A stretch of DNA of 42,898 nt from positions 1 through 42,898 of the forward strand of contig DAOVMD010000001.1 of the NCBI GenBank assembly GCA_030630935.1, read 5' to 3'. Both the position numbers and the translations under genes were made by a program. The DNA is from Candidatus Mcinerneyibacteriota bacterium. Its GTDB lineage: Bacteria > AUK180 > JAQVHJ01. The notes under the pieces are model-generated. The model was given only the letters and a program-made list of their open reading frames with translations. It searched no databases and had not been told where the DNA came from. Below, piece by piece: positions 9,800 through 26,091 of this stretch; positions within the stretch are counted from its first letter, which is position 1, and each line of letters starts with the position of its first letter.

Positions 9800-11767
9800 T
9801 TGGTAAATCGGAAAATTAAACTTATGTTATTAATTTTTTTTATATTCTTCTTCGCAATCGTTTTCCCAGGATATATATTTTATCTTAAGATAAAGCAACA
9901 TCTTAATTTCGAAGAAAGTTACTCTACTGTTTTATTCTTTTCTATTAATCTTGGTTTATTTATAAACGTAATATTATTTCTTATCTTATCAGTTACTAAA
10001 ATAAAGCTAAATGTTTTATATTTTTTATATCCTATTTTATTTATCTCTTTACTTGGATTTCATCTGAAAAAGATTAAGGCTCATATAGAAAATTTAAAGA
10101 TTAAAAAAGAAGAATGGTTTCTTCTTTTAATTCTTTTATTATCTTTCATTATCTTATTATTTAAAAAAGGTGAAATACCTATAGATATAAATTATCTTGT
10201 CCCTGTTTCAAGAAGCTTGGACGAAGGCTATCTTGTAAATAAACAGTTTGTCTTTACATCTGAAATTTTCGATCCAAGGTTTTCATTCAATCCTTATTGT
10301 TATATAATACTATTAATTAAATTATTTTCAAATTACTCCTTAATTTATATCTGGAGAAACATACCTTTTATTTGGGTTTTTTGTTCTTTAATTTCTTTAT
10401 ATTCTTTTTCAAATATTTACTTTAACAACCAAAAAGTTGGATTATATGTAATTTTAATTTTTTTTCTGCATTTCGGTGGCGTTTTTTTTAATATGATTGG
10501 TTTCACAACTTTTAGTAAACCTCTGCCTGTTCATTTATATGTTTATATTCCATTTCTATGGCTTATTGTCATGAAGTTTTTCAAAAATAATAATTTTATT
10601 TTATATCTTGTTTTATTCACCGCTTTTACTAATCTAATTTCATATAATCCGTTTTATTTAATTCTTGCCCTTTTTTCATTATTCCCTCTTTTTGTATATG
10701 AAACGATATATCGTCCCCAAGACACAATAAAAAAGACACACAAAATTTTATTTATATTTTTATTATGTTTTCCATTCTTAATTTTTAAGCTCATTATTTT
10801 TTCCAGTTCAAATCCAGGATTTTATGATCTGGTTTTTGTAAACACTTCATATTCTTTTAGAAATGTAATTATTTTCTTAAGTAAAAACGCATATATATTA
10901 AATCCCTATTATTTATTTAGAGTTGATTATAGTTTAAATTCGTATAGTTATTTTGCTTATCCAATTTCATCTATTATTGCTCTTTTTATAACACCATTTT
11001 TTTTCTTTTCAAAAGAATGGAAAAAGATTGAAATACGTCTATTGTTATTATGTATATTTTTTATCATCTTTATCGCTGAGAATCCCATTTTGTTTCCACT
11101 TCTTTCGAAATTTATTTCCCTAATTTATGCCCAGGCAATTGGAATTATAATACCCCATTTTATAATCACAGGATATGCTTGTTACTTAATCTTTAATTAT
11201 ATAGGTAAAAAATTTAAAAAATCAAAGAATATTATTCTATTATTATCCCTGCTAGTAATATTCCTTTGGTCTTTTAATCACATAAAAAATAATTATCATG
11301 TTCTAAAAAATGATTTTGTCAATAGAGAAAAATTATATGAACTACCTGAACCAATAAATTATATTAAATCAATGGGAATAGAAAATAAAATGTTTTTTTC
11401 AGATCCAACGTTAAATGATTTTATCTGCAGCTTCTCTAATAATTTTGTTTTTTATGTATATTCAACTGACAGCAATCCAAACGATCCTTTCTCAGTAGAA
11501 AGAGAGAATAAATTTAATGCAATCATAAAAGAGAATAATATTGATATAATCAAAAGTTTCTTTTTTATCAACAATATAGACTTCCTAGTAATTACGAAAA
11601 ATTATCCATCAAAAGAAAAATTAAACTTGATAAATTTAGAACAAATTTATTTTTGCAAAAAAGAATATAATATGTTTCCTCTTTATTTAAAGATAAAAGA
11701 AAATGATCTCTTTCCAATAGAATGGGAAGATGAAAATTATATTATGTTTAAAATATCTCAGAATTAA
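9800..11767 (+). CDS. Large polytopic membrane protein with a C-terminal extracytoplasmic domain (GT-C-like architecture, function unknown)
   Basis: 655 aa with more than 12 predicted hydrophobic segments. The C-terminal soluble part (...IDFLVITKNYPSKEK...ENYIMFKISQN) aligns by eye with the C-terminus of the 18416-20428 protein (...IDYLVLEKENSY...DGYLVFKIIY). The track start is TTG at 9800; ATG at 9824 is an alternative. Confidence 0.65.
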   Translation: MVNRKIKLMLLIFFIFFFAIVFPGYIFYLKIKQHLNFEESYSTVLFFSINLGLFINVILFLILSVTKIKLNVLYFLYPILFISLLGFHLKKIKAHIENLKIKKEEWFLLLILLLSFIILLFKKGEIPIDINYLVPVSRSLDEGYLVNKQFVFTSEIFDPRFSFNPYCYIILLIKLFSNYSLIYIWRNIPFIWVFCSLISLYSFSNIYFNNQKVGLYVILIFFLHFGGVFFNMIGFTTFSKPLPVHLYVYIPFLWLIVMKFFKNNNFILYLVLFTAFTNLISYNPFYLILALFSLFPLFVYETIYRPQDTIKKTHKILFIFLLCFPFLIFKLIIFSSSNPGFYDLVFVNTSYSFRNVIIFLSKNAYILNPYYLFRVDYSLNSYSYFAYPISSIIALFITPFFFFSKEWKKIEIRLLLLCIFFIIFIAENPILFPLLSKFISLIYAQAIGIIIPHFIITGYACYLIFNYIGKKFKKSKNIILLLSLLVIFLWSFNHIKNNYHVLKNDFVNREKLYELPEPINYIKSMGIENKMFFSDPTLNDFICSFSNNFVFYVYSTDSNPNDPFSVERENKFNAIIKENNIDIIKSFFFINNIDFLVITKNYPSKEKLNLINLEQIYFCKKEYNMFPLYLKIKENDLFPIEWEDENYIMFKISQN

Positions 11768-11860
11768 ATTATTCATATTTGTTTTAACGTTTCCAGAAAT
11801 TTTTACAATAGAAAAGTTATAATATTCTAAAGATATAAGCTCCTTATAAATTATTCTTCG

Positions 11861-12130
11861 TCAAAATAACCTCTCTATGTACTTTCTGTTTAATTTTTTT
11901 ATAACTTCCAAACTAAAGTAATTAAAAGTTTTGGGGTGTAACCCATGTCCGTGCATTTGCAAGTCAATGATATTCTTTTCTGTTATTACTAAGTCAAAAT
12001 GTTCCTTTTTTCTATAGGATAATGTTAATATTTTGATGTTTATGATTTAAGATTGACCCAGAACCACTCAATACAGTCGAGTATCTGGACGCAGGAATTG
12101 GGGTTATTGGCAATATTAAAGGAGACTATT
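11861..12130 (-). pseudogene. Remnant of a fourth SGNH hydrolase gene; the C-terminal fragment is intact in frame and upstream parts are degraded
   Basis: Minus-strand frame ending at TGA (11863-11861) reads ...LSYRKKEHFDLVITEKNIIDLQMHGHGLHPKTFNYFSLEVIKKLNRKYIERLF*. It shares EHFDL plus the block V H-x-x-x-x-G/helix pattern with the C-terminus of the 8602-9717 SGNH protein (NNVEHFDLASN...DDVHFNDKGSILVGKEVANYM). There is no start codon and an upstream stop lies at 12049-12047. A weak block II-like stretch (FNIANNPNSCVQIL) appears on the minus strand near 12060-12120. Confidence 0.4.
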
Positions 12131-12314
12131 TTTTTCTATCGTTTGTTTCTTCGTGTATTTGTTGTATTGATATTCATTTTTTATATTTATTTTTATCTTT
12201 ATTAATGCTATTGCTGACCTCTAACTACAGAGGTAAATTATACCATTTTAAAGAATTATTCAGCAACCCAAAAGTTAACATTTTGATATTTTAACATCAA
12301 GTAATATTTTTTTC

Positions 12315-12342
12315 TTGACAAACCACCTAAATATGATATAAT
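12315..12342 (+). promoter_or_regulatory. Near-perfect sigma70 promoter with extended -10 for the 12365-20428 operon
   Basis: TTGACA (12315-12320), 16-nt spacer ending in TGA, TATAAT (12337-12342). AAGGA (12354-12358) and the ATG at 12365 follow. Confidence 0.6.
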
Positions 12343-12364
12343 ATTTATTCAATAAGGATTACTT

Positions 12365-15300
12365 ATGAATAATTTTATATATAATTTAAATCATATAAAA
12401 CGATTTTCTCTTTACTTCCTGGTGTTTATGCTTCCTTTAATCTTTTCACCTGTGAATTTCTTAGTATTTGAGATTCCCAAGATCCTGTTTATCTCATTTA
12501 TGGCATTGGTCTTTGCTATAATCTCCTTTATTGAACTCTGGTCTAAAACCGAGACTGAACAATCAAAACTCCTTAATCATTATATTTTAATATTTATCAT
12601 CATATCCTTAATATTAGTTGGATATGGTCTCGTGTTTAATAACTCTGGAAACATTCGTTTCTTAGAATTAACTACCCCTGTTCTTTTTCTCTTTGTGATA
12701 TTTACATCCATCACAGACTCTGTCAGATTTACAATGCTAAAAGTAGGGTTATTCTCTCTATTGATTGTCTCTATCTACGGTATACTACAAAGCCAAGGAA
12801 TTGATCTTGATATCTGGGCAGGAAATATTGGGAAGAAAACTGTATTCTCAACCATTGGAAATCCAAACACTGCTGCAGAGTTCTCCTTCCTGCTCTTTCC
12901 GGTTATTGCTTATTTCTTCCTATCCTCAACTCGAAAGGGAGTAAAGTTCTGGTACGCTTTACTGGGAATCGTTTCTTTACTTTTCAGTTTCATCTGCCAA
13001 TCCAAAGGAGCTATACTTTCTTTTATCATTGCTTCATTTATTATTGTTTTTTTTATGATAAAGTCTAAAAAAAAGAAAATAGCCGTTTCTCTTGTTATTA
13101 CCGGTTTAATTACCATTGGCATATTCTTTTCAAGTTTTATCTTTTTAAGGGATACAAGTGCAGGGAATTTTATCTCTCAATATTTTCCAAACAAACTTCC
13201 GTTTCAAAACCGAATTGCGGTGTTTACTAATACTCTAAAAACCATCCGGAATAATTCAATACTGGGCGTTGGACCTGGAAATTTCCAGTATTACTATACA
13301 TCTGAATTTTTAAACAACGAGTACATTGTAAATAAGCCCCTGGATCCACATGCGGTTCTGGTTAAAAGAGCCCATAATGAATTCTTGCATATCTCTACCG
13401 AATTTGGAATATTGGGATTGGGATTCTTGGTTCTATTCTGGATATTGACATTCAAAGGAGGACTCATACTTTGTAGAAAAAACATTTGGTATTATTTTGT
13501 TCTTTGGGCAGTTGTTTTTATTTTCCTCGAAAGTTTTATTAATTTCCCCCTACAAAATCCAACTGTCCTAATTTACTTTATTTTGATTCTTTCTTTTATT
13601 TTCAAAAAGTTTAATTTCCCCAAAAAATTACCACACAAATATACTCCTATATTAATTTCTATTTCTGGAATTATTCTTCTGGGAATATGTATTTTATCTA
13701 TAAAAACATTCATTTCTGATACTTATCTTCTTAAATCCAATCAGCTTATCTCTAACGGAGATCTGGTCCGAGCAAGAGTGTATTTAAAGAAATCAATAAA
13801 AGCAGACCCAAAGAATTTCATTGCCAGAACTAACCTTGGTGTGGTGGAATACAACCTGAAAAACTATTCAGAAGCTGAAAAAATCCTGCTTAAAAGTAAA
13901 AGGGGAATTATTGATTTCAACCTTTTCTTTAATTTGGGAATGCTTTATCAAAATACCGGTGATTTAAATAACGCTTCTGTAAATTTACAAAAAGCTTTAT
14001 CTTTGAATCCATATCATGAAGACCTGAAATTCAAGTTAATTAATATATATTTATTCAGATTTCAACTTAAAAGAGCCTTTGAAATAATTACAAGATTCAA
14101 GCTCTCTCCTCATACCTCAGAACAATTCATGACATTTGGTTTTTTACATAAACTAAACGGAAACTTTTGGCAAGCACAATGTGATTTTAAGCAAGCCTTT
14201 AATGATTCAAGATTTCAAATAATAATTTTAAAAAATGCACCCATACCAAGAGATTTTTACCAAGATTATTCTTTATTCAATAAAACTTCCAACCCTCTCT
14301 TAGAAATTGGTATATTATATTACTTACAACAACCAAAAAAACAAATCCTGTTTAAAATTGACCAATATTTAAAGGTTATTGACCAGGAAGAAGTTAAAAA
14401 TTATATATTGGGTATTAAAGCGGAACTAAATAATGATTTTATCTCCGCAGTTAAATATTACAAAAAAAACCGCGGTAAAAACCTTAACCTTGATTTAGCT
14501 AGAGTTTATTTAAAACAAGGAAACCTTGATAATTTCCTTATTTCTATCAAAGATGTATTTAATCAATTTCAACTTCATGATAATGTAGATGAATATTCTC
14601 TACCGTTCTTCAATGAAGATATTAATGTTTTAGAATTATACCGAAAGTTCTTTAGTGGTTCAAGTTTAAAAGATCTTATTAAATCGTATAAAATCTGTTC
14701 TCTTTCTTCTTCTTCATCGTCCTTATTTCTTTATTTTCCAGTTTATTTTAATTTCATAAACGATCAATTCGATGAACTTTATCGTGAATTGAAAAGAGAT
14801 GAATTATTATACAAACATTCATTACATCAAGTAAATGAAAATTATTTAGCAATTTTACCAATTTTTGCTCCCGCTTATCTTAAATTTGAAGAGCTTCCAA
14901 AAGAAAACCACCTATTTTTTGAGTTTTTTCTGTTTACAGAGTTAGAAAATAATTTGATTTTAAATGATGAGGGCTTAATTCCCGTATTCCGAAATTATTT
15001 ATCTTCAAAATATGACATTTCAATCAACAATATCCCATTAAAAATTAAAGATCTAGAAATTTATTTAATTAAATTGTCATGTTTGGATATTGATGAACAT
15101 AAAATTGATTTAGCTTTTTTCTACTTATTAAAAGGAAAACATTCCAAGTGTATACAAATTCTTGAAACGTTAAAGAAAAAAGACTCTAAAAGATATCAGT
15201 TATTAAAAATTTTAACACATTTTCATTTAACAAACGATGAAATAGATGTTGAACTCTTTTACTCTTCAGATGAAATGAAAGAGTTTGGTAATCAAAATGA

Positions 15301-15415
15301 TTTCCCTTTAAATATCTATGAAATTTATGCAAAAATTCTTACAACTCCATATTTACAATTAAAAAATAAGGATAAAACCTTTGAAGCCAACTTTAACAAA
15401 TATTCTCAAATGTAA
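12365..15415 (+). CDS. Wzy_C-domain (O-antigen ligase/polymerase or O-oligosaccharyltransferase-like) membrane protein fused to TPR repeats and a long uncharacterised C-terminal region
   Basis: 1016 aa. The N-terminal polytopic region of about 440 aa carries the Wzy_C signature RAHNEFLHISTEFGILGLGFLVLF. TPR-like repeats lie around residues 460-620 (e.g. GMLYQNTGDLNNASVNLQKALSLNPYHED). The remaining 400 aa or so match nothing I recognise. Confidence 0.75.
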   Translation: MNNFIYNLNHIKRFSLYFLVFMLPLIFSPVNFLVFEIPKILFISFMALVFAIISFIELWSKTETEQSKLLNHYILIFIIISLILVGYGLVFNNSGNIRFLELTTPVLFLFVIFTSITDSVRFTMLKVGLFSLLIVSIYGILQSQGIDLDIWAGNIGKKTVFSTIGNPNTAAEFSFLLFPVIAYFFLSSTRKGVKFWYALLGIVSLLFSFICQSKGAILSFIIASFIIVFFMIKSKKKKIAVSLVITGLITIGIFFSSFIFLRDTSAGNFISQYFPNKLPFQNRIAVFTNTLKTIRNNSILGVGPGNFQYYYTSEFLNNEYIVNKPLDPHAVLVKRAHNEFLHISTEFGILGLGFLVLFWILTFKGGLILCRKNIWYYFVLWAVVFIFLESFINFPLQNPTVLIYFILILSFIFKKFNFPKKLPHKYTPILISISGIILLGICILSIKTFISDTYLLKSNQLISNGDLVRARVYLKKSIKADPKNFIARTNLGVVEYNLKNYSEAEKILLKSKRGIIDFNLFFNLGMLYQNTGDLNNASVNLQKALSLNPYHEDLKFKLINIYLFRFQLKRAFEIITRFKLSPHTSEQFMTFGFLHKLNGNFWQAQCDFKQAFNDSRFQIIILKNAPIPRDFYQDYSLFNKTSNPLLEIGILYYLQQPKKQILFKIDQYLKVIDQEEVKNYILGIKAELNNDFISAVKYYKKNRGKNLNLDLARVYLKQGNLDNFLISIKDVFNQFQLHDNVDEYSLPFFNEDINVLELYRKFFSGSSLKDLIKSYKICSLSSSSSSLFLYFPVYFNFINDQFDELYRELKRDELLYKHSLHQVNENYLAILPIFAPAYLKFEELPKENHLFFEFFLFTELENNLILNDEGLIPVFRNYLSSKYDISINNIPLKIKDLEIYLIKLSCLDIDEHKIDLAFFYLLKGKHSKCIQILETLKKKDSKRYQLLKILTHFHLTNDEIDVELFYSSDEMKEFGNQNDFPLNIYEIYAKILTTPYLQLKNKDKTFEANFNKYSQM

Positions 15416-16799
15416 TACATGCGGATCATATAAGCTTTCAGAAGAAAAACGTTTTCTAATTTGTAATAATTGTGGGAATAAATACAAGATTATAAATGAA
15501 AATACAATTAAATCCATTAAAGATGAATCAAAAAAGTATTACTTTGATGATATTGATATTTCTGATTTCTCCCAAGAACATAACACTCCCTTCTTCCTAT
15601 TCTCTGAGAAAATAATAAATAAAAACTACACCAAGTTAAAAACAATTCTCTCCGAATTAAAAATTGATCATCAAATTTATTATTCTTTGAAAACAAATTT
15701 TAATAACTTTCTTCTTGAAATAATTAATAAGAAGTTTAATTATGCTTCAGCAGCCTCAATTCTTGAGTTATCAGCTGCAATGAAAGCAGGATTCAAAGGT
15801 TCAGACATAAGCTATGACGGACCTGTTATGCGAAGATACGAGGTTGAATATGCAATTGAAAACGGTGTTAAATTATTTAATATTGACTCAATTGAATCTG
15901 CTGTTATTTTAAATGAAACTGCTGTTAAATTGAATAAAAAACTTAAAATTTCGCTAAGGTTAAATTTTAACTTCGGCAGCAAATTTTTCAGACTAATTCA
16001 TGTTTTTAATGAGCGGTTTGGTTTTTCTTATATTTATTTTAATTATTTTATGAAGAAATTTAAAACTTTTAAAAATTTGAATATAATAGGACTAGGGTTT
16101 CATTTAGGGTCTCAGATATCAAATGTTGAAATTTATTTGAAGGCTTTTAAAAAGTTAATTAAATTAATATATGAAATTGATAAAAAGTACCGAATAAGTA
16201 TTTCTCATATAAATATCGGTGGCGGATTTCCAGCATTAAATATTAAAAAGAATACTTTTTTTAAACTTGGTTTAAGATATTTAAAAATCTCTAATAAATC
16301 AAATAATAATAGAAACATGCTTATCCGGAAGTTATTAAACGGTATATCTATAATCCTTAAAAAGAAAAACCTTCCCATTAAAATCTTTCTTCAGCCTGGA
16401 AGAAGTATTGTTGGAGATGCAGGAATCCTGATAACAAAAATTTATTCGATAAAAAAAGAGTGGGTTTTTCTCGATGCAAGCAATAATTTTCTTCCCGAAA
16501 CTTTCTTAACTGTTAACCGGGATATAATTAATATCTCAAAACTTGGGGCAAGAAAAGATTTCAAATATTCCTTTGCAGGAAGAACACTCTGTGCAGATAT
16601 TTTTAATATAAACGTAAACCATCCCCGTGCAGATATTGGTGATATAATAGTTATAAACTCATCGGGTGCTTACAGTTTATCAAGAGCAAATAATTTTACA
16701 ACACTAACTCCACCAATCTGGTTAATTACAGAAAGTGGTCAAATAAACTGTGTCTCATCCGGAGAAGAGGTAGAAGATGTCATCAGGCGATTTAAATGA
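15381..16799 (+). CDS. PLP-dependent decarboxylase of the Orn/Lys/Arg/DAP (fold-type III, group IV) family with an N-terminal Trm112-like zinc ribbon
   Basis: 472 aa. Ribbon CNTCGSYKL...LICNNCGNKYKI, then TPFFLFSEKII, PLP-lysine motif YYSLKTNFN, and the motifs FHLGSQ, NIGGGFP, QPGRSIVG, GRTLCADIF and SSGAYS. The track start is TTG, overlapping the upstream gene by 35 nt. Confidence 0.8.
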   Translation: MKPTLTNILKCNTCGSYKLSEEKRFLICNNCGNKYKIINENTIKSIKDESKKYYFDDIDISDFSQEHNTPFFLFSEKIINKNYTKLKTILSELKIDHQIYYSLKTNFNNFLLEIINKKFNYASAASILELSAAMKAGFKGSDISYDGPVMRRYEVEYAIENGVKLFNIDSIESAVILNETAVKLNKKLKISLRLNFNFGSKFFRLIHVFNERFGFSYIYFNYFMKKFKTFKNLNIIGLGFHLGSQISNVEIYLKAFKKLIKLIYEIDKKYRISISHINIGGGFPALNIKKNTFFKLGLRYLKISNKSNNNRNMLIRKLLNGISIILKKKNLPIKIFLQPGRSIVGDAGILITKIYSIKKEWVFLDASNNFLPETFLTVNRDIINISKLGARKDFKYSFAGRTLCADIFNINVNHPRADIGDIIVINSSGAYSLSRANNFTTLTPPIWLITESGQINCVSSGEEVEDVIRRFK

Positions 16800-17571
16800 A
16801 GGATTTGAGTTTTGGGATAAGGTAGGGAAATCATTTATTGACTATTCCACTGCTCCTACAACAAAGTATTATTTTGATGAAGAAATTACCGCAATAAAGA
16901 AACACTTTGAATTATCTCCTGAAAAAACTTTTTTAAAATTAGACCTATGGAATGAAGCAATTAATACTAATATTCTATTTGAAGTAGCAAAATCGGGGAT
17001 TGAATGTTTTGGACTCGATATATCTGAAGGTATTGTTCAGCGTGCCTATAATAAATCCCGTTTTGAGGGAGTAGATATAAACTTTGTAATTGGAGATATT
17101 TTTAATCTTCCATTTAAGAAAAATTCTTTTGATTATTTATATACAATGGGAACAATTGAACATTCAAAAAACATGGAATCGATTGTTTCTCAAATCTATC
17201 AAGTACTCAAGCCCGGTGGGAAAGCAATTATAGGATTACCAAATAGGCTGGATCCTTTTTTCCGCCCGCTATTAAAAAATATAATGGAGCTCTTTAATAT
17301 ATATTCGTTTGGATTAGAAAAGTCATTAGATGTTGCAGAATTAAGAAATCTGTTTTTTAAGAATAAATTCAGAATTTTAAATTCCGGAAGCATGTTGTTT
17401 CTTCCCGGAATATTACGAATAATAGATCTTTTCTTTTTTAAATATTTTAGGTTTCTAACAAAAGTTACGGAAATACTATATAAGCCTTTTCAATTTTTAA
17501 AAAGAAAAATCCCATTTCTTAGACTTTCCGGTTATTTAATTTATATTGTAGTGGAGAAGAAGCAATGGTAA
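16777..17571 (+). CDS. Class I SAM-dependent methyltransferase
   Basis: 264 aa. Methyltransf_11-like pattern: ECFGLDISEGIVQRA (motif I/post-I region), FDYLYTMGTIEH, LKPGGKAIIGLPN. It overlaps the upstream gene by 23 nt. Confidence 0.7.
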   Translation: MSSGDLNEGFEFWDKVGKSFIDYSTAPTTKYYFDEEITAIKKHFELSPEKTFLKLDLWNEAINTNILFEVAKSGIECFGLDISEGIVQRAYNKSRFEGVDINFVIGDIFNLPFKKNSFDYLYTMGTIEHSKNMESIVSQIYQVLKPGGKAIIGLPNRLDPFFRPLLKNIMELFNIYSFGLEKSLDVAELRNLFFKNKFRILNSGSMLFLPGILRIIDLFFFKYFRFLTKVTEILYKPFQFLKRKIPFLRLSGYLIYIVVEKKQW

Positions 17572-18419
17572 TTCAAGAAAATATTGACTTTTGGAATGAA
17601 GCTGTAAGTCGCAATAAAGAAATATCCGTTATTGGATTCAATGCCCTTGATAACTACCCCATGGCTGAAGATCATGGAGAACTTAGAGAAGCTAAACATT
17701 TCTTCAAACCAATCTCCGGGGGAAAAAAACTTGACATCAGCTGTGGATATAGTAGATTTCTTTTTGAATATGCTGAGAAAGGATTGGAATGTCAAGGTTT
17801 TGATTTCTCTCCTGAAATGATAAAAATAGGAAAAATTTCTGCAGAATCTAAAAAATTAAAAATTGCTTTTTATGAAAATACTATTGACAACTTTAATCTT
17901 CCAAATATTAAATTCTATTATATCTGGTGCCACGATGCAACAATGTATCTTTCCCGTTATGAAATATCTAAATTATTCAATTTAATAAACCGGTATTTGA
18001 AAAAGGATGGAATCGCTTTTGTTGAGTTTCGAAATAAATTTTATGTTTTTGCTCTCTTTACAGAATTATCCAAATTTTTTCTGAAAACTATTTATCCTGG
18101 ATTTCGACATGCGTATTCTATATTAGATGCAAAAGCTTTTTCAAAAAATGCTAATTTGATAATTAAGGATATTTATGCAATAAGCTCAATTCTCTTTCCT
18201 CTTTATATACCTAAAAACTCTTTTGGTGGGTTAAAATTTTCAACAAAAGGAATGCCCGATGAAATAAAAACAAAATTTATTCCATTGTTTCCCGTTTTCA
18301 TTATAAAGTTATTCCAATTTTTATTTTTTTCTTCTTTAAAAAAAATATCTAAAGCCGGCTTTATATTCCCTGCTTATATTTCAAAAGAATTTATTTTTAA
18401 TTCTGGAAAAGAAAAATGA
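17565..18419 (+). CDS. Class I SAM-dependent methyltransferase (second copy, divergent)
   Basis: 284 aa. KKLDISCGYSRFLFEYAEKGLECQGFDFSPEMI (motif I and the acidic post-I residue), then LKKDGIAFVEF. It overlaps the upstream gene by 7 nt. Confidence 0.7.
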   Translation: MVIQENIDFWNEAVSRNKEISVIGFNALDNYPMAEDHGELREAKHFFKPISGGKKLDISCGYSRFLFEYAEKGLECQGFDFSPEMIKIGKISAESKKLKIAFYENTIDNFNLPNIKFYYIWCHDATMYLSRYEISKLFNLINRYLKKDGIAFVEFRNKFYVFALFTELSKFFLKTIYPGFRHAYSILDAKAFSKNANLIIKDIYAISSILFPLYIPKNSFGGLKFSTKGMPDEIKTKFIPLFPVFIIKLFQFLFFSSLKKISKAGFIFPAYISKEFIFNSGKEK

Positions 18420-20428
18420 CTTTTCATAAAAAGAATATTGGTTTAATGTTTGACTTTATTTACCTTTTCTCCGGAATTTTTATCTTACTGGCTCTCATTA
18501 TAAAAGTTACGTTTAATCCTCTCATTTCAGCTTTTGCAATTTTTTATTTTTTCCTCTTGATGCCTGGATATTCCCTAGTTAAGATTTTTAAAATAAACAT
18601 TTCATATCCTCATGAATATTTCAATCTTTCCTTTGTGATAGGATTGGCTGTTTTCTCAGTTTTCAGTACATTTTTTCTCGTTACTGAAATAACTTTTACA
18701 AAAGCGATCGTTCTTCTTACAATTTTTTCTATCTCCATATTTATATTTTACAAAATAAAAAGCAGGGAGGGGTTCTCATATAAAAAAAATTATGAACAGA
18801 ACTTTTTAAATTTATTCCTTATTACATTAATGGCAATATTCTGGATATTAATTATTATTTTTAAAGCTCCCGGAACGATGGATAGTTTGACTACAACTTC
18901 TTATATTTCTAAACTTGCTAATAGCACTAGAATAATCTTAATAGATGGATTCTATTCAAATAGACCCTATGATATAATCTGGTTTAACCCATGGGTTGTA
19001 TTCAATGCAATTGCTGCTAAAATCTCTAAGGTTGAATATATTTCATTATTTTCTGTTTTTCCTATACTTTTAATGCCGTTAACTGTTTTTAGTTTTTTTT
19101 ATTTTACCGAAAAGGTTTCTGGAAGTTCAAAAATTGCTTCTATTTCAGTAATTATTTTTCTCCTATTTCACGGTTTAAATGAGGGTTTATGGATATGGAG
19201 AACAAGTTCTTACCCAATGATACTCACTAATTTTATTATTATTCCCACACTTTTAGGAATATTGTTTTCAAAAAAAAATAAAAACATTATGCTTTGGGTG
19301 GCAGGTTTAATTATTTTTCTAATATGTGCAATTCACCTTATTTCTTTTTTCAATATAATTGTTATTCTCTTTAGCATATTAATTATAAATTTAATTTTCA
19401 ATAGTAAGAAAAGTCCTAATAATTCAAAATCATTTTTCATCGTTATAGTTATTGGATTGGTTTTATCAACTATATTGATTTTTTTATTACAACGTTATAA
19501 TCAACACATAGGTCTTTCAAATCAATTTCATCATGTTAAATATGGAATTTTAGAAATATCAACCAATGCTTTCATTGTAGAACCATTAAAATTATTCGTT
19601 CCTCATTATCATGTAAAACCTTGTTTTTCAACCAGGTACTTTTACTGGTTCTGCACAATTTCAGTATTCCTTTTAATTCCTTATTTTAAAAAATCAAATT
19701 CTGCAAAATATTCCTTAACCATTACTTTCGCTGCTTTGTTCATAATGTTAAACCCAATAATAACAGGTATATTAAGTAATATTACTAGTTATGCTGCAAT
19801 TGGTAGAATTAACCAAATTATTCCTTATGAGTTTATTTTAGGAATTGTTATTGTTTTTTATCTTAATTCATTTATTAATCATAAAAATAAACGAGTTTTC
19901 CTGGAAAAAATCATTGTCTTGTTAATTTTCCTAACACTTTTCTTCGGATCACTATTCGTAAATAAAAGATTAGTCAGGTTTTTCCAATCTGAAAAGTCAA
20001 CAAGCTCCTCAATCTGGAAGATGGATTACGTTATTAATGGCTGCCTTCCTCTATATCTCCATAATCCTAAGGCTTATTACCCCGTACTAAAGTTTTTAAG
20101 AAATATTAAGGAACAATCTATAATTGCTGCTGAGCCGGAACTCTCTCTATTTATCTCATCATATACAAAACATTTCGTTTTCCTAACTGTTCCAAACCAA
20201 AGTCCAATTGGAGCGTATGATCAAATTGATAGAATGGAGGCATATCAATCTCTCAAATCTAAGAATAGTAACTCGGATATAATAAAAAAGATTCTTGTGG
20301 AATATGAGATAGATTATTTGGTTCTTGAAAAAGAGAATTCTTATCTAATAAATAAGTTTGAAAACATCAATTATTTAAAAATCATTTATAATCAAGACGG
20401 ATATCTTGTTTTTAAAATTATTTATTAA
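18416..20428 (+). CDS. Large polytopic membrane protein with a C-terminal extracytoplasmic domain; paralog of 9800-11767 (GT-C-like architecture, function unknown)
   Basis: 670 aa with many hydrophobic segments. The C-terminal domain is alignable with that of the 9800-11767 product. It has a 4-nt ATGA overlap with the upstream methyltransferase gene. Confidence 0.65.
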   Translation: MTFHKKNIGLMFDFIYLFSGIFILLALIIKVTFNPLISAFAIFYFFLLMPGYSLVKIFKINISYPHEYFNLSFVIGLAVFSVFSTFFLVTEITFTKAIVLLTIFSISIFIFYKIKSREGFSYKKNYEQNFLNLFLITLMAIFWILIIIFKAPGTMDSLTTTSYISKLANSTRIILIDGFYSNRPYDIIWFNPWVVFNAIAAKISKVEYISLFSVFPILLMPLTVFSFFYFTEKVSGSSKIASISVIIFLLFHGLNEGLWIWRTSSYPMILTNFIIIPTLLGILFSKKNKNIMLWVAGLIIFLICAIHLISFFNIIVILFSILIINLIFNSKKSPNNSKSFFIVIVIGLVLSTILIFLLQRYNQHIGLSNQFHHVKYGILEISTNAFIVEPLKLFVPHYHVKPCFSTRYFYWFCTISVFLLIPYFKKSNSAKYSLTITFAALFIMLNPIITGILSNITSYAAIGRINQIIPYEFILGIVIVFYLNSFINHKNKRVFLEKIIVLLIFLTLFFGSLFVNKRLVRFFQSEKSTSSSIWKMDYVINGCLPLYLHNPKAYYPVLKFLRNIKEQSIIAAEPELSLFISSYTKHFVFLTVPNQSPIGAYDQIDRMEAYQSLKSKNSNSDIIKKILVEYEIDYLVLEKENSYLINKFENINYLKIIYNQDGYLVFKIIY

Positions 20429-21389
20429 TATTTGGAATGATTACTTCTTTAATTAAACCTATTAGACTTTTATATCCTGAAAGCGAATAATGACTTTCAT
20501 CAATGAAATCATCTTTATCCTTAATGTGTTGGTTCGCTCTGATCACAGAAATCTCTTTTTCTTTGCCGATTTGAACAACAATGTCATTGTAAGCTAGAAC
20601 ATTAAAACGCCAATTGTCCTCTGGAATTATTGCATGAGGATTAATCGCTCTGGTTAATAATATTATTTTTATTCTTTCTTCCGAACAAATTTTTATCATC
20701 TCGTTATAGTTTGCTTCGAATTCTGTTTTTGAAACGCGTGGAATTTTCTTCAAATTACTTTTCTTTCTTATAATTGAATAAAAGTAATGATAAGTTCTAC
20801 TATTTAATAAAAATCTTTTCATAACAATATTTATCTTTGACGTTTTTTTTATTATTTCGGAATCAGTATAGCTTTTTACAGGAACAGCATCATTCCAACC
20901 AAAATTAATTATCACTATATCCGGATGATGTTTAATAACCTGCTTCAACAAAATAAGACCCTGAGTTGATGAATAACCATAAATGCCTAAATTATAAACT
21001 TCATATTCATGTCTACTTTTATTTTTATTCAATGATTCTTCTAATAGTTCCGGATACGAATATTTTAGGTTACCAAGGGTGTTTGAATCACCAATGCAAA
21101 ATATTCTAAGCTTTCCCTTTTTCTTTTCTTCTGGGAATTCTCTTGTATGAAAGCCATAAGAATTAAAAGCAGGTGAATTAGGATTACCTCTCCATAAGAG
21201 ATTTTCATCTTCTGTAAAATGACCATCATTATACATATGATGTAATCTCCAGTCGTCTTCAATTACTAATGCCTTTTCCATTGTCTTCACACCAAAAAAT
21301 GCAAAAGTATATTCGAGGATGAAAAACAATACTATAGGAATGGAAATAGCAAATATTATTTTTGCTAAAAGATTTTTCTTTATTTTCAT
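20418..21389 (-). CDS. Membrane-anchored SGNH/GDSL-family hydrolase-like protein
   Basis: 323 aa. N-terminal TM helix (IIFAISIPIVLFFILEYTFAFF). Canonical blocks FCIGDSNTLG (I), NLGIYGYSS (II), NFGWNDA (III) and DESHYS (V). Its 3' end overlaps the convergent 18416-20428 gene by 11 nt. Confidence 0.8.
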   Translation of the reverse strand: MKIKKNLLAKIIFAISIPIVLFFILEYTFAFFGVKTMEKALVIEDDWRLHHMYNDGHFTEDENLLWRGNPNSPAFNSYGFHTREFPEEKKKGKLRIFCIGDSNTLGNLKYSYPELLEESLNKNKSRHEYEVYNLGIYGYSSTQGLILLKQVIKHHPDIVIINFGWNDAVPVKSYTDSEIIKKTSKINIVMKRFLLNSRTYHYFYSIIRKKSNLKKIPRVSKTEFEANYNEMIKICSEERIKIILLTRAINPHAIIPEDNWRFNVLAYNDIVVQIGKEKEISVIRANQHIKDKDDFIDESHYSLSGYKSLIGLIKEVIIPNINK

Positions 21390-22483
21390 TACAACTTCAA
21401 CGTCATTATAATTTTTTCTAATGACTTTTCCATTTTAAATTGTTTTACTATTTTGCTTGCTGAATCAGACAACTGATTTGTTTTCCCTTTATTATTTAAT
21501 AAGCTTTCGAGTTTTCTTGAAAGGGTTTCAGCATTGCCATATTTAAAAAACAAAATATCCTTACCATCCTTAAAATATTTCACCAGTTCCTGAATTGGTG
21601 TTGCAATTATCGCACACTCATTTGCTGCGGCTTCAAGAATAACAAAAGGAAAGCCTTCATAAAAGGAAGATAGTATGAATATATCTGCATGTGAAAATAA
21701 TTTTGCAGGATTTTCAACAAAACCAGGAAATTCTATAAATCCTTCTTCTATTAATTCACCCGCAAGTTCAATAAACTTCTTTTTATCAGGGCCATCTCCG
21801 GCAATAATTAATTTAAAATTAACAACTTCCTTTTTTCGTAATATCTTTATCGCTTCTATTAAAACAGAAAAACCTTTCTTCTCATCTTCAAACCTACCAG
21901 CAGAAATAAGAATTGTTTTTTCACTCGACTGCTGTGGTCCCTTATAAATCAATTCTTCTGAAATACCCGGATTAAACATAACAAGCTTATCTTTTGGAAT
22001 GTCTTTTAATTCATCAAAGATTTCATCAGAAATACAAAATACTCTTTCAAATAAAGAGAATGTTTTTATATCCAATTTTTTATATAGTTTCTTTTTTCTA
22101 CGTAAGTTCGATGTCATAAAGGGAGATTCATATACATCAAATCGAAACGCATATAACTTAAGTTCTGGTTTTCTTTTCTTAAGGGCTCCACCTATTCTAT
22201 TTGCAAAGGAGTCAAAACAAAAAACTTTTTCTATTCGTCTTTCTTCAATTATCCTGTTTATCTCTTTTAATTGAAATTTTAAAAACAAACGACTAAATCT
22301 TTGTGTCGTGATTCCGATTCCTTTCTTTTCGAGGATCTTTGTAATAATAGAATTTTCCCTGACTAAAAAATGTTGTTCTGTATTCAGTTCTATAAATTTA
22401 TCAACTAATGCAAACAGCATGCGTTCCTGTCCACCAAAAACCTCACCATACCTTTGCGCTATGTCAATGTATAGAATACTCAT
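21389..22483 (-). CDS. GT4-family (GT-B fold) glycosyltransferase
   Basis: 364 aa. C-terminal domain with IIAGDGPDK and the E-x7-E region EGFPFVILEAAANECAIIATP. Confidence 0.8.
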   Translation of the reverse strand: MSILYIDIAQRYGEVFGGQERMLFALVDKFIELNTEQHFLVRENSIITKILEKKGIGITTQRFSRLFLKFQLKEINRIIEERRIEKVFCFDSFANRIGGALKKRKPELKLYAFRFDVYESPFMTSNLRRKKKLYKKLDIKTFSLFERVFCISDEIFDELKDIPKDKLVMFNPGISEELIYKGPQQSSEKTILISAGRFEDEKKGFSVLIEAIKILRKKEVVNFKLIIAGDGPDKKKFIELAGELIEEGFIEFPGFVENPAKLFSHADIFILSSFYEGFPFVILEAAANECAIIATPIQELVKYFKDGKDILFFKYGNAETLSRKLESLLNNKGKTNQLSDSASKIVKQFKMEKSLEKIIMTLKL

Positions 22484-22486
22484 AAT

Positions 22487-23854
22487 TTATCCATTTAAAA
22501 ATGCTGCAAGTTTTCGTTTTAAAATTCTAAAAAAGTCTGCCGGGTGATAAATTAACTTAAAAAAAGTATGTAGTTTCTTTATTACTGCCTTGGTTCGATT
22601 ATAATTTGCTACTTGATTGTGGTCTGGGCTGCAAGCCGGATTATTAATCCAAGTTTTTAGTGGTTTTAATAAAACTTTCGGAGAAAATTGCTGATTAACA
22701 AAATCCTTGCATTTAGAAGAAAGCTTTTTATACTCTTCTCTATTCAACTTAGAAGCAGTAAGAATATTTTCCACAAAACGTTCAGTATCACCAATAGGGC
22801 TTACAAGCCCAAGTCCTTGTTTATTTACAATCTCTGTTATTTCCGAGCCTTTTGTAGAAAGAATCGGAAGTCCTAATCTTAACATCTCTATAATACGATA
22901 GCGAGCTCCAATTAAGGTTTCATAACTATTATTGTCAATGTTAATTCCGAAGTTACAAGCTAAAACATACTTCTCAACCTCATCTGTTTTAACCCAACCA
23001 ATAATTTTGAAATTATCTTTAAAACTTGATTGGTTAATCAAAGTTATCAACTTTTCTTGCTTTTGAGTCTTTTGACCAAAAATATTACCTCCAATTGAAA
23101 GAAACTTGATTTTTGGATTTTTTATCATTGCTCTTTCGAGAACTTTAAAAAGAAAATCTACATCTGTCCAATAGTTAAATCCTCCCATCCAAAATATTAC
23201 AAAATCATCCGGTTTAAATAAATCCAGGTTTTCTCTCCTGAAAACAGGTTTTATATAATCGAGGACTGGTTCAGGGATTATTTCAATAAACTCATATCCG
23301 CTATTTAATTTATTTAATCTTCCAATCCCACCTAATTCTCCGATCAATTCAAATTTCTGGGGTCGGGATACTACGGAAAATTTATCCGCCCTCTGCAAAA
23401 TTGCCTTTTCAATTTTCCAAAATTTAGAAGTAAGGTCTGGGATATTTTCTTTATACGCCTTTAACTGCCCTTCCATCATCATTGATCCATTTAAATCTAC
23501 CCAAACCGGAACATCTATCCCTAAGGTTGCTGCATAAAATGAGGGAAATGAATTAATCCCTAAAATTACATCAGGATTAAAGTCTCTTGCAATTTTCCTG
23601 ACCATTTCATGTTTTCTAAAATGAATCTTATTTAAAGAATAATACTTAAATCCGAATTCTTCCGTATAGAATTTATCTATGATTTCCCCATTTTCGATCA
23701 TGGGAAATTCTCTGATTGCAATTAAACATATTTCAAAATCATGCTTTAAATAATTGACAAAAATACCGGTCCTAATTTCGGGACAGGTTAATCTATCCGG
23801 ATTCTCTTCTGGTAAGGGAGATGTTCCAAATATTAATATTCGTTTTTTACCCAT
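22487..23854 (-). CDS. GT-B-like glycosyltransferase, copy 2 of a tandem paralog pair
   Basis: 455 aa. Shares ADKFSVVSRPQKFELIGEL, GGFNYWTDVDFL, NPKIKFLSIGG and GINIDNNSYETLIGARYRIIEMLRLGLPILST (GT4-like E...E region) with the adjacent 23847-25211 product. Confidence 0.65.
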   Translation of the reverse strand: MGKKRILIFGTSPLPEENPDRLTCPEIRTGIFVNYLKHDFEICLIAIREFPMIENGEIIDKFYTEEFGFKYYSLNKIHFRKHEMVRKIARDFNPDVILGINSFPSFYAATLGIDVPVWVDLNGSMMMEGQLKAYKENIPDLTSKFWKIEKAILQRADKFSVVSRPQKFELIGELGGIGRLNKLNSGYEFIEIIPEPVLDYIKPVFRRENLDLFKPDDFVIFWMGGFNYWTDVDFLFKVLERAMIKNPKIKFLSIGGNIFGQKTQKQEKLITLINQSSFKDNFKIIGWVKTDEVEKYVLACNFGINIDNNSYETLIGARYRIIEMLRLGLPILSTKGSEITEIVNKQGLGLVSPIGDTERFVENILTASKLNREEYKKLSSKCKDFVNQQFSPKVLLKPLKTWINNPACSPDHNQVANYNRTKAVIKKLHTFFKLIYHPADFFRILKRKLAAFLNG

Positions 23855-25211
23855 CTAAAAATGCCTTGAATCTTCGATTTAATACTTTTTTAAATTGCCT
23901 TGGGTTACTTATTTCCTTAATCAGGTTCAATAATTTCTGAGAACGAGTAATCCGCTTTAAATACTTTCTTTTATATATATTGTCCGGACTGGGTTGGGGA
24001 TCTTGAACCCAACTTAAAAACTCTTTTAGCACCATCTTCGATTTCCAGTGTTTAACTGCATAATCTCGACCTTTCGCACCCATAGATTTTAATTGCTGAA
24101 TAGGTGTGTTCGAGAGTTCCAGAATTCGATTTCTGAAACTATCTTGATCCCCGATACTAATCGTGAACCCAAGATTATATTCCTTAATTATTTGAGAAAT
24201 CGACGTTCCTAAGGTTGTTAATACCGGTAATCCAGCCTTCATCATATCATTAAGTCGATTTCTTCCCCCCGTAAGAGTCTCATAACTATATGAGTCAATA
24301 TTTATTCCGATATCACTCTCAAAATAGTAATTCGGAACATTTGTTGTCTCCACCCAACCAGGAAAGATGAAATTTTTCCTTAACATAGAATTATTAACTA
24401 ATTGTTTAAACTTATTAAAGGTCTGGTTATTATGCCCGGGAATCGCTCCTCCCAGGGATACAAATTTAATTTTCGGATTTACTTCCATTGCAGAACTTAA
24501 TCCCTTATATAGAAAATCAATATCAGTCCAGTAATTATACCCACCAGTCCAAAGAACAACAAAATCTTCTTCTGCTACCAATTTTTTTCTTAATACCTGT
24601 TTGTTATGTTTATATTCTCCGGAAATAATCGGATTCTGAATAACACTCACAAAATCATAGAATATATTCAAGTGACTTACTCTATTAATAGATGCAAGTT
24701 CACCGATTAATTCAAATTTCTGGGGAAGAGATACTACTGAAAACTTATCCGCTTTAGTGGTAATTGTATATTCAATTTCCAAGAACTGCCAGACGTAATA
24801 ATCATCTTTCTCTGCCGCAGCTTTGAGTTGAAATTCACAAACTAAAGAACCATTTAGGTCTGCCCAGAAAGGAATTTTTAAATCTAATAATGTTGCATAA
24901 TAAGAAGGGATTGAATTAACCCCAATCAAAACCTCTGGCTTAAATCCTCTTACGAGTTTCTTTAAATAATCAATATCGCTGAATTTATTATCATCAATAG
25001 AATAATAGATAAGGTTTTCAAATTTGTGTTTAATCTCCGAGGATTGATCTGGAGTATAGGAATCCTTGAATCGCATTCCTAAGAGTAAAACTTCTCCGAT
25101 TTTTTGTAACTCCTCAACAAAAGCTGCGGTTCTAATAGAACCGGCATAAAGTCTTTTTGGGTTTTCGAAAGGCAATGGGGCATTCCCAATTACCAAAAAT
25201 CTTTTACTCAA
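23847..25211 (-). CDS. GT-B-like glycosyltransferase, copy 1 of a tandem paralog pair
   Basis: 454 aa. ADKFSVVSLPQKFELIGEL, GGYNYWTDIDFL, NPKIKFVSLGG, GINIDSYSYETLTGGRNRLNDMMKAGLPVLTT. The basic amphipathic C-terminal tail (KKVLNRRFKAFLDG) mirrors that of its neighbour (FRILKRKLAAFLNG). Confidence 0.65.
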   Translation of the reverse strand: MSKRFLVIGNAPLPFENPKRLYAGSIRTAAFVEELQKIGEVLLLGMRFKDSYTPDQSSEIKHKFENLIYYSIDDNKFSDIDYLKKLVRGFKPEVLIGVNSIPSYYATLLDLKIPFWADLNGSLVCEFQLKAAAEKDDYYVWQFLEIEYTITTKADKFSVVSLPQKFELIGELASINRVSHLNIFYDFVSVIQNPIISGEYKHNKQVLRKKLVAEEDFVVLWTGGYNYWTDIDFLYKGLSSAMEVNPKIKFVSLGGAIPGHNNQTFNKFKQLVNNSMLRKNFIFPGWVETTNVPNYYFESDIGINIDSYSYETLTGGRNRLNDMMKAGLPVLTTLGTSISQIIKEYNLGFTISIGDQDSFRNRILELSNTPIQQLKSMGAKGRDYAVKHWKSKMVLKEFLSWVQDPQPSPDNIYKRKYLKRITRSQKLLNLIKEISNPRQFKKVLNRRFKAFLDG

Positions 25212-25218
25212 AACAAAT

Positions 25219-26091
25219 CTACCTCATTATTTTTTTAATAACCCACTTAACAATATATGGAATTAAATTTAAATAAGCAAGAATTAACGGAATGTAGTTA
25301 CTTCTCGGACAATTAATAAACCACCATTTGATCTCAAACTTTAATGCTTTGAATAAGATATGAGTTATAGTAAAATTTTTCCAAACAAACCTTAAGCGAT
25401 TACGATGATATGTATTTAGATATCTAAAACTATTAGAGCCCAGAGTGGTTGCTTCATGATGATAAATCACACAATCTGGTTTATAAATAACTTTCTGGCC
25501 TGATAATCTTGACCTGTAACAAAGATCTGTTTCTTCGTAGTAGCCCGGGAAAAAATCTCTATCGAAGTATCCTAACGTTTCAATAACTCTTCGCTTTATC
25601 GCAAAGGCCGCGCCGGTAACGTAATCTACTTCTTTCGTTTTATTGTATTGCCCTCTATCTATTTCTTTATACCCGATATGATTTGTTAGTCCATTCGGGT
25701 GAATTATTCCGCCGGTGTGCTGAAGAGTTTTTGTTCCTGGGAAATAAATCTTGCAGCCAATTATTCCTACTTCCTCACTAAAGCCACTGTTGATATTTTT
25801 AATAAGATTTTTATCAACTATAATATCCTGGTTTAATATTAATACGATGCTCGCTGATGTTCTTTTTATTCCAAAATTCATTCCACCAGAGAATCCAAGA
25901 TTCTTTTTTAGTTTAATTGTGTTAAATTCCGGAAAATCTTGCTTGATTAATCTATAAGTCGAGTCCTTGCTGTTGTTATCAATTAAAAGAACTTCCTCAT
26001 CACCTGTTAAGGCGTCCCTCAGAGAAGATAAACAATCTTGATAAAATCTCTCTCCATTATAAAACAGAATTATTATTGAAATCTTTTTCAT
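25219..26091 (-). CDS. GT2-family glycosyltransferase (WbbL/rhamnosyltransferase-like)
   Basis: 290 aa. ISIIILFYNGERF, LIDNNSKDST, NLGFSGGMNFGI, ILNQDIIV, GAAFAIKR. Confidence 0.8.
   Translation of the reverse strand: MKKISIIILFYNGERFYQDCLSSLRDALTGDEEVLLIDNNSKDSTYRLIKQDFPEFNTIKLKKNLGFSGGMNFGIKRTSASIVLILNQDIIVDKNLIKNINSGFSEEVGIIGCKIYFPGTKTLQHTGGIIHPNGLTNHIGYKEIDRGQYNKTKEVDYVTGAAFAIKRRVIETLGYFDRDFFPGYYEETDLCYRSRLSGQKVIYKPDCVIYHHEATTLGSNSFRYLNTYHRNRLRFVWKNFTITHILFKALKFEIKWWFINCPRSNYIPLILAYLNLIPYIVKWVIKKIMR

Follow-up and report, generated by a model that had tools for sequence, protein, structure and literature searches.

The systems closest to the locus described here each match one part of it. 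The Arn pathway (ArnA, ArnB, ArnC, and ArnT) and the three-component pathways built on GtrB or CsbB with a flippase and a GT-C protein (GtrC or YfhO) modify surface glycans by placing a polyprenyl-phosphate glycosyltransferase of family 2 (GT2) and polytopic proteins beside cytoplasmic tailoring enzymes. Diaminopimelate (DAP) decarboxylase, or LysA (family model TIGR01048; structures 1TWI and 2YXX), is a pyridoxal phosphate (PLP) enzyme of fold type III with a barrel and a C-terminal sheet domain, and LysA-like decarboxylases have been recruited to polysaccharide tailoring (the exosortase-A-associated family TIGR03099) and to aminoglycoside tailoring (BtrK, the butirosin Glu-ACP decarboxylase). 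In microcin C, MccD, which has a methyltransferase fold (PDB 5FCD), works with the PLP-decarboxylase domain of MccE (PMC10491745). Apart from this combination of an S-adenosylmethionine (SAM) enzyme and a LysA-like decarboxylase (the N-terminal domain of MccE) acting on one substrate, we found no characterised pair of enzymes with these folds. In Trm112 holoenzymes, such as Haloferax Trm112-Hvo_0019 (6F5Z), a free-standing Trm112p-type ribbon partners a Methyltransf_11-type enzyme. The locus of interest is a five-gene unit in a stretch of 42,898 nucleotides (positions 1 to 42,898 of contig DAOVMD010000001.1, Candidatus Mcinerneyibacteriota bacterium; hereafter the window), and at its centre are a PLP decarboxylase and a methyltransferase, MT1, whose family is named here for the motif DLWNE. 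Gene comparison firmly marks this pair as an uncharacterised tailoring cassette conserved in glycan loci, which also encode probable parts of a lipid-carrier, extracytoplasmic route, and the two enzymes probably add an amine-type decoration to a cell-surface glycan. The type of system is already known, and the novelty lies in the tailoring enzymes and in how they are paired; no described decarboxylase-methyltransferase system of this combination was found in a literature search or among curated family models.

The unit consists of a promoter and five plus-strand open reading frames (ORFs):

12315-12342, plus strand: sigma-70-type promoter with TTGACA, a 16-nt spacer, TATAAT, and an upstream TG (extended -10), 22 nt before the first gene
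12365-15415, plus strand: first gene of the unit, polytopic Wzy_C and tetratricopeptide repeat (TPR) protein, WaaL-like O-antigen ligase/polymerase, 1016 amino acids (aa) (Wzy_C 2.1e-14, TPR_19 1.5e-16)
15381-16799, plus strand: fold-type-III PLP decarboxylase of a non-LysA clade, 472 aa, with a TTG start preceded by AAGGA
16777-17571, plus strand: MT1, class I methyltransferase fold of the DLWNE family, 264 aa, the conserved partner of the decarboxylase
17565-18419, plus strand: MT2, canonical class I SAM methyltransferase with motif I LDISCG, 284 aa
18416-20428, plus strand: 670-aa protein with ~13 transmembrane (TM) segments, a C-terminal soluble domain, and a nearly invariant Asp156

Successive genes overlap by 35, 23, 7, and 4 nt, just as an earlier note on this DNA, made from the sequence alone, had reported in describing five stacked genes behind a consensus promoter. 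The promoter is also as that note described it, with a 12/12 consensus match, and is the sole perfect one within 11700-21500; the DNA there is AT-rich, and the number of weaker matches (66 observed versus 57 ± 9 expected) does not exceed what chance would give. No terminator-like site was found on the plus strand of the unit. The 1016-aa protein has ~15 hydrophobic segments, and its TPR repeats follow the Wzy_C domain. Ahead of the promoter is an unusually long noncoding gap (11768-12364, ~600 nt) with a relatively G+C-rich stretch at ~11930-12110, in which tRNA and Rfam families were looked for and none were found.

The decarboxylase is a member of the fold-type-III PLP enzymes, with both Pfam domains above threshold (Orn_Arg_deC_N [PF02784], 1.6e-28, 100 bits; Orn_DAP_Arg_deC [PF00278], 8.8e-5, 23.1 bits versus a cutoff of 23) and with the PLP lysine, HxGSQ, GGG, xPGR arginine, and GAY tyrosine that it shares with LysA. 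The motifs in which the earlier note saw every hallmark of the family are all in place (CNTC at residue 11, CNNC at 28, SLKTN at 102, HLGSQ at 241, GGGFP at 280, QPGR at 338, CAD at 404, and SGAY at 428), but two of them are not what they seemed: QPGR replaces the usual EPGR, and the C-x-D is not the canonical, catalytic CES cysteine motif, because the alignment puts LNxxD or L-CAD there in the clade, most members of which lack a Cys at this position. The PLP-binding residues are kept in the clade, with little or no variation at K104 (the PLP lysine), H241, G280-282, R341, and Y431; Q338 is the exception among the PLP-contact residues. The EPGR position is Gln in the window protein and several relatives and Glu in other clade members, and because it varies within the clade Q338 is not a defining change.

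The models and structures that come closest confirm both the kinship with LysA and its limits. Among NCBIfam models lysA ranks first (210.1 bits, below the TIGR01048 equivalog cutoff of 297.9), followed by DokD (149 bits) and TIGR03099, to which the protein does not belong at 121.9 bits against a cutoff of 478. The best structure match is Methanocaldococcus jannaschii DAP decarboxylase (DAPDC; 1TWI, E 5e-35); 7RU7 and 2J66 also match (E ~1e-25), as does the D-ornithine/lysine decarboxylase DokD, which is likewise a good match. The protein thus resembles the TIGR03099 and BtrK enzymes significantly, but it scores far under the TIGR03099 cutoff, and no acyl-CoA ligase or carrier protein is seen near the cassette. 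The idea that this decarboxylase family is no standard part of O-antigen or capsule clusters has to be qualified, since the TIGR03099 model shows that such PLP decarboxylases are not unheard of in polysaccharide loci. A tblastn search of plasmids for MccE or for relatives in cultured organisms returned LysA-like genes only, at ≤27% identity.

The residues that recognise the distal end of DAP set the window protein apart from LysA most clearly. In Thermotoga maritima DAPDC, Arg285 together with the Arg of EPGR binds the distal carboxylate, Glu315 (the Glu of the CES motif) binds the distal amine, and the EPGR Glu keeps the PLP pyridine nitrogen protonated (PMC8277567). MRPAMYE of M. jannaschii DAPDC aligns with LPETFLT in the window protein, which therefore lacks the distal-carboxylate Arg; LysA-like sequences retain RPxxY. 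Across the clade (the window protein and ~25 relatives aligned) IRPxxY is replaced by LPExxF, and an invariant Glu, E373, occupies the site of that Arg. The distal-amine Glu is also missing, the clade having mostly LNxxD and the window protein TL-CADIF, versus CESxD in LysA-like proteins. Elsewhere in the clade alignment GAYGxSMSSN is changed to GAYSxSRAN and a ~20-residue insertion follows GGGFP, and a neighbour-joining tree places the clade apart from LysA-like sequences. By these sequence comparisons the decarboxylase is not LysA and belongs to a separate clade, which supports the earlier note's reading; it differs from LysA also in its N-terminal ribbon and in a context of glycan rather than lysine genes. 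It may well have descended from a DAPDC and lost the ability to bind DAP, and this ancestry is one component of the joint proposal set out below.

MT1 and MT2 were introduced as divergent twins, and the domain assignments of the pair stand: Methyltransf_11 and Methyltransf_25 match both, just as the two Orn/DAP domains match the decarboxylase. They are not twins, however, MT2 being canonical and MT1 a member of the DLWNE family, which lacks the glycine-rich motif I. In MT1 residues 56 to 60 are DLWNE, at the place after strand 1 where SAM motif I (glycine-rich, D/E-x-G-x-G-x-G) is expected; the context is LKLDLWNEA in MT1 and LK-x-DLWNE-A in all nine cassette orthologs. A profile search finds >150 members of the family, and DLWNE is present in 119 of the 120 listed (P0050-P0169), one of the family being fused to an N-terminal domain that by eye resembles an acetyltransferase. 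We know of no description of a DLWNE-type methyltransferase family. The downstream SAM-binding motifs are kept in MT1 orthologs, and the ribose/adenine-binding acidic residues D81 and D107 are conserved.

The MT1 fold is nonetheless ordinary. The Methyltransf_11 match is strong (9e-18), an AlphaFold2 model (predicted local distance difference test [pLDDT] 93.4) has an ordinary class I fold, and Foldseek returns >1000 methyltransferase matches (best E 8e-17). Structural neighbours are assorted O- and N-methyltransferases, the Trm112 partner methyltransferase 6f5z, phosphoethanolamine N-methyltransferases (which are also among the top PDB sequence matches of both MT1 and MT2), and, at rank 27, MccD. 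A specific kinship of MT1 with MccD was considered and rejected: in profile searches of the PDB MccD ranks at ~40 (E 7.8e-7), and with Foldseek it is again mid-ranking (E 1.6e-14, 20% identity), behind ordinary O-/N-methyltransferases, so that MT1 is no nearer to MccD than to dozens of these. Given the fold and this mid-ranking mix of neighbours, sequence and fold cannot separate methyl transfer from aminocarboxypropyl transfer.

The pairing of the two genes is seen well beyond the window. Neighbourhoods were compared using exact-protein look-ups, one genome scan, one metagenome scan, and our own ORF and BLAST/hidden Markov model (HMM) comparison, and the loci are labelled Gammaproteobacteria, Proteobacteria, Daviesbacteria, Patescibacteria, Acidobacteria, and unclassified bacteria, together with Dependentiae-like and candidate phyla radiation (CPR) loci. 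An MT1 ortholog comes immediately after the decarboxylase or one gene away in ~16 of 20 assessable loci. It is directly downstream, and usually overlapping, in 14 of them (32 to 88% identity; the window and the loci designated L001/L007, L004, L006, L008, L009, L010, L012, L018, L019, L020, L021, L097, and L098), and in L005 and L016 a short-chain dehydrogenase/reductase (SDR) sits between the two genes. In L026 and L028 the decarboxylase is followed by a related but more distant, non-DLWNE methyltransferase. Two more distant decarboxylase homologs occur in L057 (4747-6787 and 9069-11218), with a methyltransferase gene after one and before the other and B12-binding radical-SAM genes nearby. 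The four-gene neighbourhood of decarboxylase, two methyltransferases, and membrane protein anticipated in the earlier note therefore reduces to a core of decarboxylase and MT1, which is found across distant lineages and always in glycan-type loci; MT2, the ribbon, and the 670-aa protein do not extend beyond a small Dependentiae-like subgroup.

An extended SDR usually precedes the decarboxylase in most lineages, the window being without one, and in L020 (3848-6178) the two are fused in a 776-aa protein with Epimerase and Orn_Arg_deC_N domains, which has a YfhO-type protein upstream and a DLWNE methyltransferase downstream. The cassette SDRs are most like thioester-reductase (R) domains (MxaA and carboxylic acid reductase) and are HpnA-type in some loci; a role as nucleotide-sugar dehydratase is not supported, the best matches being the thioester-reductase domains.

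Genes with plausible parts in a lipid-carrier route recur beside the cassette. Three window genes are needed for this comparison:

959-1651, plus strand: GT2 of 230 aa, the third GT2 of the window, similar to AglJ, ArnC, PpgS, and PgfS
2978-4459, minus strand: flavoprotein of 493 aa, UDP-galactopyranose mutase-like (PRK07208 family)
9800-11767, plus strand: 655-aa polytopic paralog of the 670-aa protein

The top NCBIfam matches of the 230-aa GT2 are AglJ, PgfS, ArnC, and PpgS, each under its equivalog cutoff, and its sequence points to a polyprenyl-phosphate sugar synthase. Homologs of it adjoin the cassette in L018 (50% identity), L006 (51%), L007 (49%), and L012 (44%); in L012 the cassette neighbours are a DUF2304 protein and a GT2. 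Polytopic neighbours are PMT_2 (with a GT2) in L004, YfhO in L020, and families of 11 to 14 TM segments without assigned function in CPR loci, and L008 to L010 have GT4, Wzx, carbamoyltransferase, and acetyltransferase genes. The flavoprotein is 11 kb from the cassette in the window, and its homolog adjoins the cassette in L001/L007 and L098; its initial designation as an amine oxidase was dropped in favour of similarity to UDP-galactopyranose mutase. These likenesses to Arn and Gtr extend to gene order, the succession of oxidoreductase, PLP enzyme, and N-modifying enzyme mirroring ArnA-ArnB-formyltransferase. There are also differences: the PLP enzyme belongs to the fold-type-III decarboxylases instead of the fold-type-I aminotransferases, a methyltransferase takes the place of the modifier, and the SDR resembles a reductase. 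In the window no gene was recognised as encoding a flippase, and its membrane proteins match no GT-C family.

The Dependentiae-like subgroup (the window, L001/L007, L097, and L098) has the order decarboxylase-MT1-MT2, and MT2 is found only there. MT2 is a class I enzyme with a Methyltransf_25 match (5e-13) from profile position 2 and a canonical motif I, and residues 238 to 256 form a hydrophobic C-terminal segment. Such tails, clear in MT2 and borderline in MT1, would suit enzymes working at the membrane. Between L098 and the window MT2 is far more divergent (42% identity) than its neighbours MT1 (88%) and the decarboxylase (81%), which suggests rapid evolution or paralog replacement.

The N-terminal zinc ribbon of the decarboxylase was correctly recognised in the earlier note. 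It spans residues 2 to 39 as CxxC...CxxC, with C11, C14, C28, and C31 present, and when residues 1 to 52 are scored in isolation Trm112p (PF03966) gives 25.4 bits versus a cutoff of 22, over profile positions 1 to 39 of 40 and starting at residue 2; scored at full length, the protein gives 20 bits for this profile. The ribbon is seen in only two sequences with a readable N terminus, the window protein and P0002 of L001, both from MT2-carrying loci, and the decarboxylases of L097 and L098 have their N termini cut off by contig ends; the closest relative's ribbon has a poor Trm112p score. As in Trm112 holoenzymes, a Methyltransf_11-type enzyme is encoded next door, and 6F5Z is a structural neighbour of MT1; here, however, the ribbon is fused to the decarboxylase and not free-standing, and the partnership is a predicted one. 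The natural SDR-decarboxylase and ribbon-decarboxylase fusions point to joint action of the enzymes.

The 670-aa protein that ends the unit is polytopic as first described, with ~13 hydrophobic segments, and it has a 25% identical paralog in the 655-aa protein, also with ~13 TM segments; the two flank the Wzy_C, decarboxylase, MT1, and MT2 genes. The 655-aa protein has an ortholog (53% identity) directly beside the decarboxylase-MT1-MT2 genes in L007, and a homolog of the 670-aa protein (37% identity) follows MT2 in L097. A word-indexed search with the 670-aa protein found one relative only, and an exhaustive HMMER search found 332 representative sequences at E ≤ 0.001; among 56 sampled members DUF6077 is present in 10, DUF6541 in 9, and TPR tails in some. 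Pfam, NCBIfam, and PDB sequence searches return no match for the 670-aa protein itself, and neither a 4-sequence nor a 56-sequence profile of it matched a GT-C chain among solved structures. The label "GT-C-like" that it had been given is therefore one that no family profile or solved structure matches. It is possibly of this nature, judging from its topology, its context, and Asp156, which is nearly invariant in 56 homologs; hhalign from D156 onward gives a weak alignment to a PMT_2 region (42% probability) and a somewhat better one to a membrane family of the CPR loci (81%). An AlphaFold2 model from a 3-sequence alignment (pLDDT 43.6) is too poor for a fold search.

We put at roughly 45% the proposal that the unit forms the tailoring part of a lipid-carrier surface-glycan modification with the logic of Arn or of Gtr/CsbB-YfhO, in which decarboxylation to an amine is followed by a SAM-dependent modification, probably N-methylation. 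The decarboxylase would act on an amino-acid-like group that a sugar donor carries or is to receive, taking off the alpha-carboxyl and leaving an amine, and the translationally coupled downstream DLWNE methyltransferase would modify this product with SAM, N-methylation being the simplest such step. In the Dependentiae-like subgroup MT2 may methylate it further, and the decarboxylase's fused ribbon may hold a methyltransferase in place in the way that Trm112 holds its partners. The 230-aa GT2 would load the sugar onto a lipid carrier, and extracytoplasmic transfer or ligation of the sugar would fall to the 670- and 655-aa proteins together with the Wzy_C/TPR protein. The earlier note had likewise envisaged an amine-derived, possibly N-methylated substituent on the glycan or its lipid carrier; the lipid-carrier or extracytoplasmic route is plausible from the GT2, PMT_2, YfhO, and polytopic neighbours, and N-methylation stays a prediction.

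Several observations weigh against this proposal. The loci do not consistently encode an amino-acid ligase, carrier protein, or sugar aminotransferase that could supply a sugar-linked alpha-amino-acid group, and the thioester-reductase-like SDR, besides being absent from the window, is ill-fitting for a simple sugar pathway. Gln at the pyridine-nitrogen position and the absence of the CES cysteine could both alter the type of reaction. The two partners also occur apart. Clade members lack MT1 in four loci (L011, L013, L022, and L023), the first two having B12-radical-SAM methylase-like genes and an aspartate-aminotransferase-like gene in its place, and DLWNE methyltransferases occur without the decarboxylase in L014, where one is paired with asparagine-synthase-like and Mur-ligase-like proteins, and in L015, a glycan locus. 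The assignment of the membrane proteins to GT-C is tentative, with a 42% PMT_2 alignment and no family match, and every locus compared comes from metagenome assemblies.

The alternatives are taken in falling order of probability. The first, which we hold to be distinctly unlikely, is a two-step aminopropylation like that of microcin C, in which SAM would serve MT1 as donor of a 3-amino-3-carboxypropyl group for an acceptor (a sugar, a phosphate, or a lipid-linked donor) and the decarboxylase would convert this group to aminopropyl (or would itself make decarboxy-SAM first), with MT2 N-methylating the amine. Such chemistry has the precedent of MccD and MccE (PMC10491745) and would explain the tight coupling of a SAM enzyme with a LysA-like decarboxylase. 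The loop rich in glycine that in other enzymes usually contacts the methionine moiety of SAM is lost from MT1, nearly the whole MT1 family having DLWNE instead, and the pose in which SAM binds may therefore differ. MccD is also a significant neighbour of MT1 in both sequence and structure. It is no special relative, though, to judge from its ranks, the microcin C target is a peptide-nucleotide whereas here a glycan pathway is involved, and the additional SDR, although conserved, would be left without a role; MT2 in the window is a further addition to the microcin C pair. We know of no report of a bacterial surface glycan that is aminopropylated.

In a second alternative, slightly less probable still in our estimation, the PLP enzyme supplies the amino group itself. 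An oxidoreductase (the SDR in most lineages) would make a keto or aldehyde group on a sugar or lipid-linked donor, the decarboxylase homolog would aminate it by decarboxylation-dependent transamination from an amino-acid donor, and MT1 would N-methylate the product. The order of dehydrogenase, PLP enzyme, N-modifier, GT2, and GT-C is that of Arn and fits the logic of N,N-dimethylamino-sugar pathways; the SDR-PLP enzyme-methyltransferase order is conserved and includes the one SDR::decarboxylase fusion, GT2 and GT-C-type proteins adjoin the cassette, and there is no DegT-type aminotransferase among the annotated neighbours. In ornithine decarboxylase, mutating the Cys equivalent to that of the CES/CxxxD motif (Cys360) diverts the enzyme to decarboxylation-dependent transamination, and the clade is without this Cys; the window protein also has Q338 for Glu at the pyridine nitrogen, but E and Q both occur at this EPGR position within the clade. 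Moreover, the window has no adjacent SDR, the SDR resembles a thioester reductase and not a sugar oxidase, and the argument is one from gene order only. We know of no fold-type-III decarboxylase homolog that acts as a physiological aminotransferase.

Quite improbable is a third alternative, that the product is a free small molecule (a methylated diamine, amino alcohol, or compatible solute) and not attached to glycan, the position in a polysaccharide locus being incidental or regulatory. An acidic E373 in place of the carboxylate-binding Arg would suit a basic side chain, as in DokD, the second-best NCBIfam model and a good PDB match, and a thioester-reductase-like SDR is typical of small-molecule metabolism. 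Opposed to this are the translational coupling with the upstream Wzy_C protein and the downstream polytopic protein, the repeated presence of adjacent GT2, PMT_2, and YfhO genes in unrelated lineages, and the hydrophobic tails of the methyltransferases. That the gene is a housekeeping lysA that happens to sit in a glycan locus is largely refuted: although lysA is the top named model and M. jannaschii DAPDC the best solved structure, LysA function was rejected on the score below the cutoff, on the loss of both residues that recognise the distal end of DAP, and on a separate clade with its ~20-residue insertion after GGGFP, and the gene has a zinc-ribbon fusion and overlaps the methyltransferase and Wzy_C genes.

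The window as a whole has a G+C content of ~29%. Apart from dnaN, dciA, gyrB, gyrA, and a mutS2-type gene (MutS_V and Smr domains) at one end, which show it to be chromosomal, it is mostly a surface-glycan locus. An exact-protein look-up finds the decarboxylase to be identical to hypothetical protein KAU33_12400, whose record is labelled as a Candidatus Dependentiae metagenome-assembled genome. Other features of the glycan locus are as follows:

4422-5639, minus strand; 8602-9717, plus strand; and 20418-21389, minus strand: three paralogous GDSL/SGNH proteins, scattered through the locus
21389-27028: two GT2 and three GT1/GT4-type genes
Glycan locus: ABC-2 (Wzm/Wzt-type) exporter pair
Glycan locus: WbuX-type amidotransferase
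Glycan locus: weak PMT_2 membrane protein
Glycan locus: radical-SAM/SPASM protein

The three GDSL/SGNH hydrolase-like proteins may be glycan O-acyl transferases or esterases, and the gene for the last of them runs opposite to the 670-aa gene and shares 11 nt with its 3' end. An ORF of 92 aa (2273-2551, minus strand) groups with GT2 glycosyltransferases and is possibly a gene remnant. Upstream of dnaN, at 42748-42793 on the minus strand, is an Acido-Lenti-1 small RNA motif (Rfam; 37.8 bits versus a gathering score of 37), in a genome labelled Dependentiae.

For annotation, these genes call for caution: they are closest to lysA and could be mistaken for it, yet they lack the residues that lysA function needs. 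The LysA-derived PLP enzyme with its rebuilt substrate pocket and the sizeable DLWNE methyltransferase-fold family are both targets for enzymology. It is unlikely, but would be of most consequence, that the two together carry out surface-glycan chemistry without precedent, whether SAM-derived aminopropylation or decarboxylation-driven amination and then N-methylation, giving a new cationic methylated amine decoration in Dependentiae, CPR, and other uncultured bacteria, with the ribbon assembling a decarboxylase-methyltransferase complex in the window. Envelope-glycan decorations control charge, antimicrobial-peptide resistance, phage adsorption, and host recognition. If the proposal is true, the cassette would be a previously unrecognised route for envelope-glycan decoration in bacteria, of relevance to obligate symbionts such as Dependentiae and to the ultra-small CPR bacteria.

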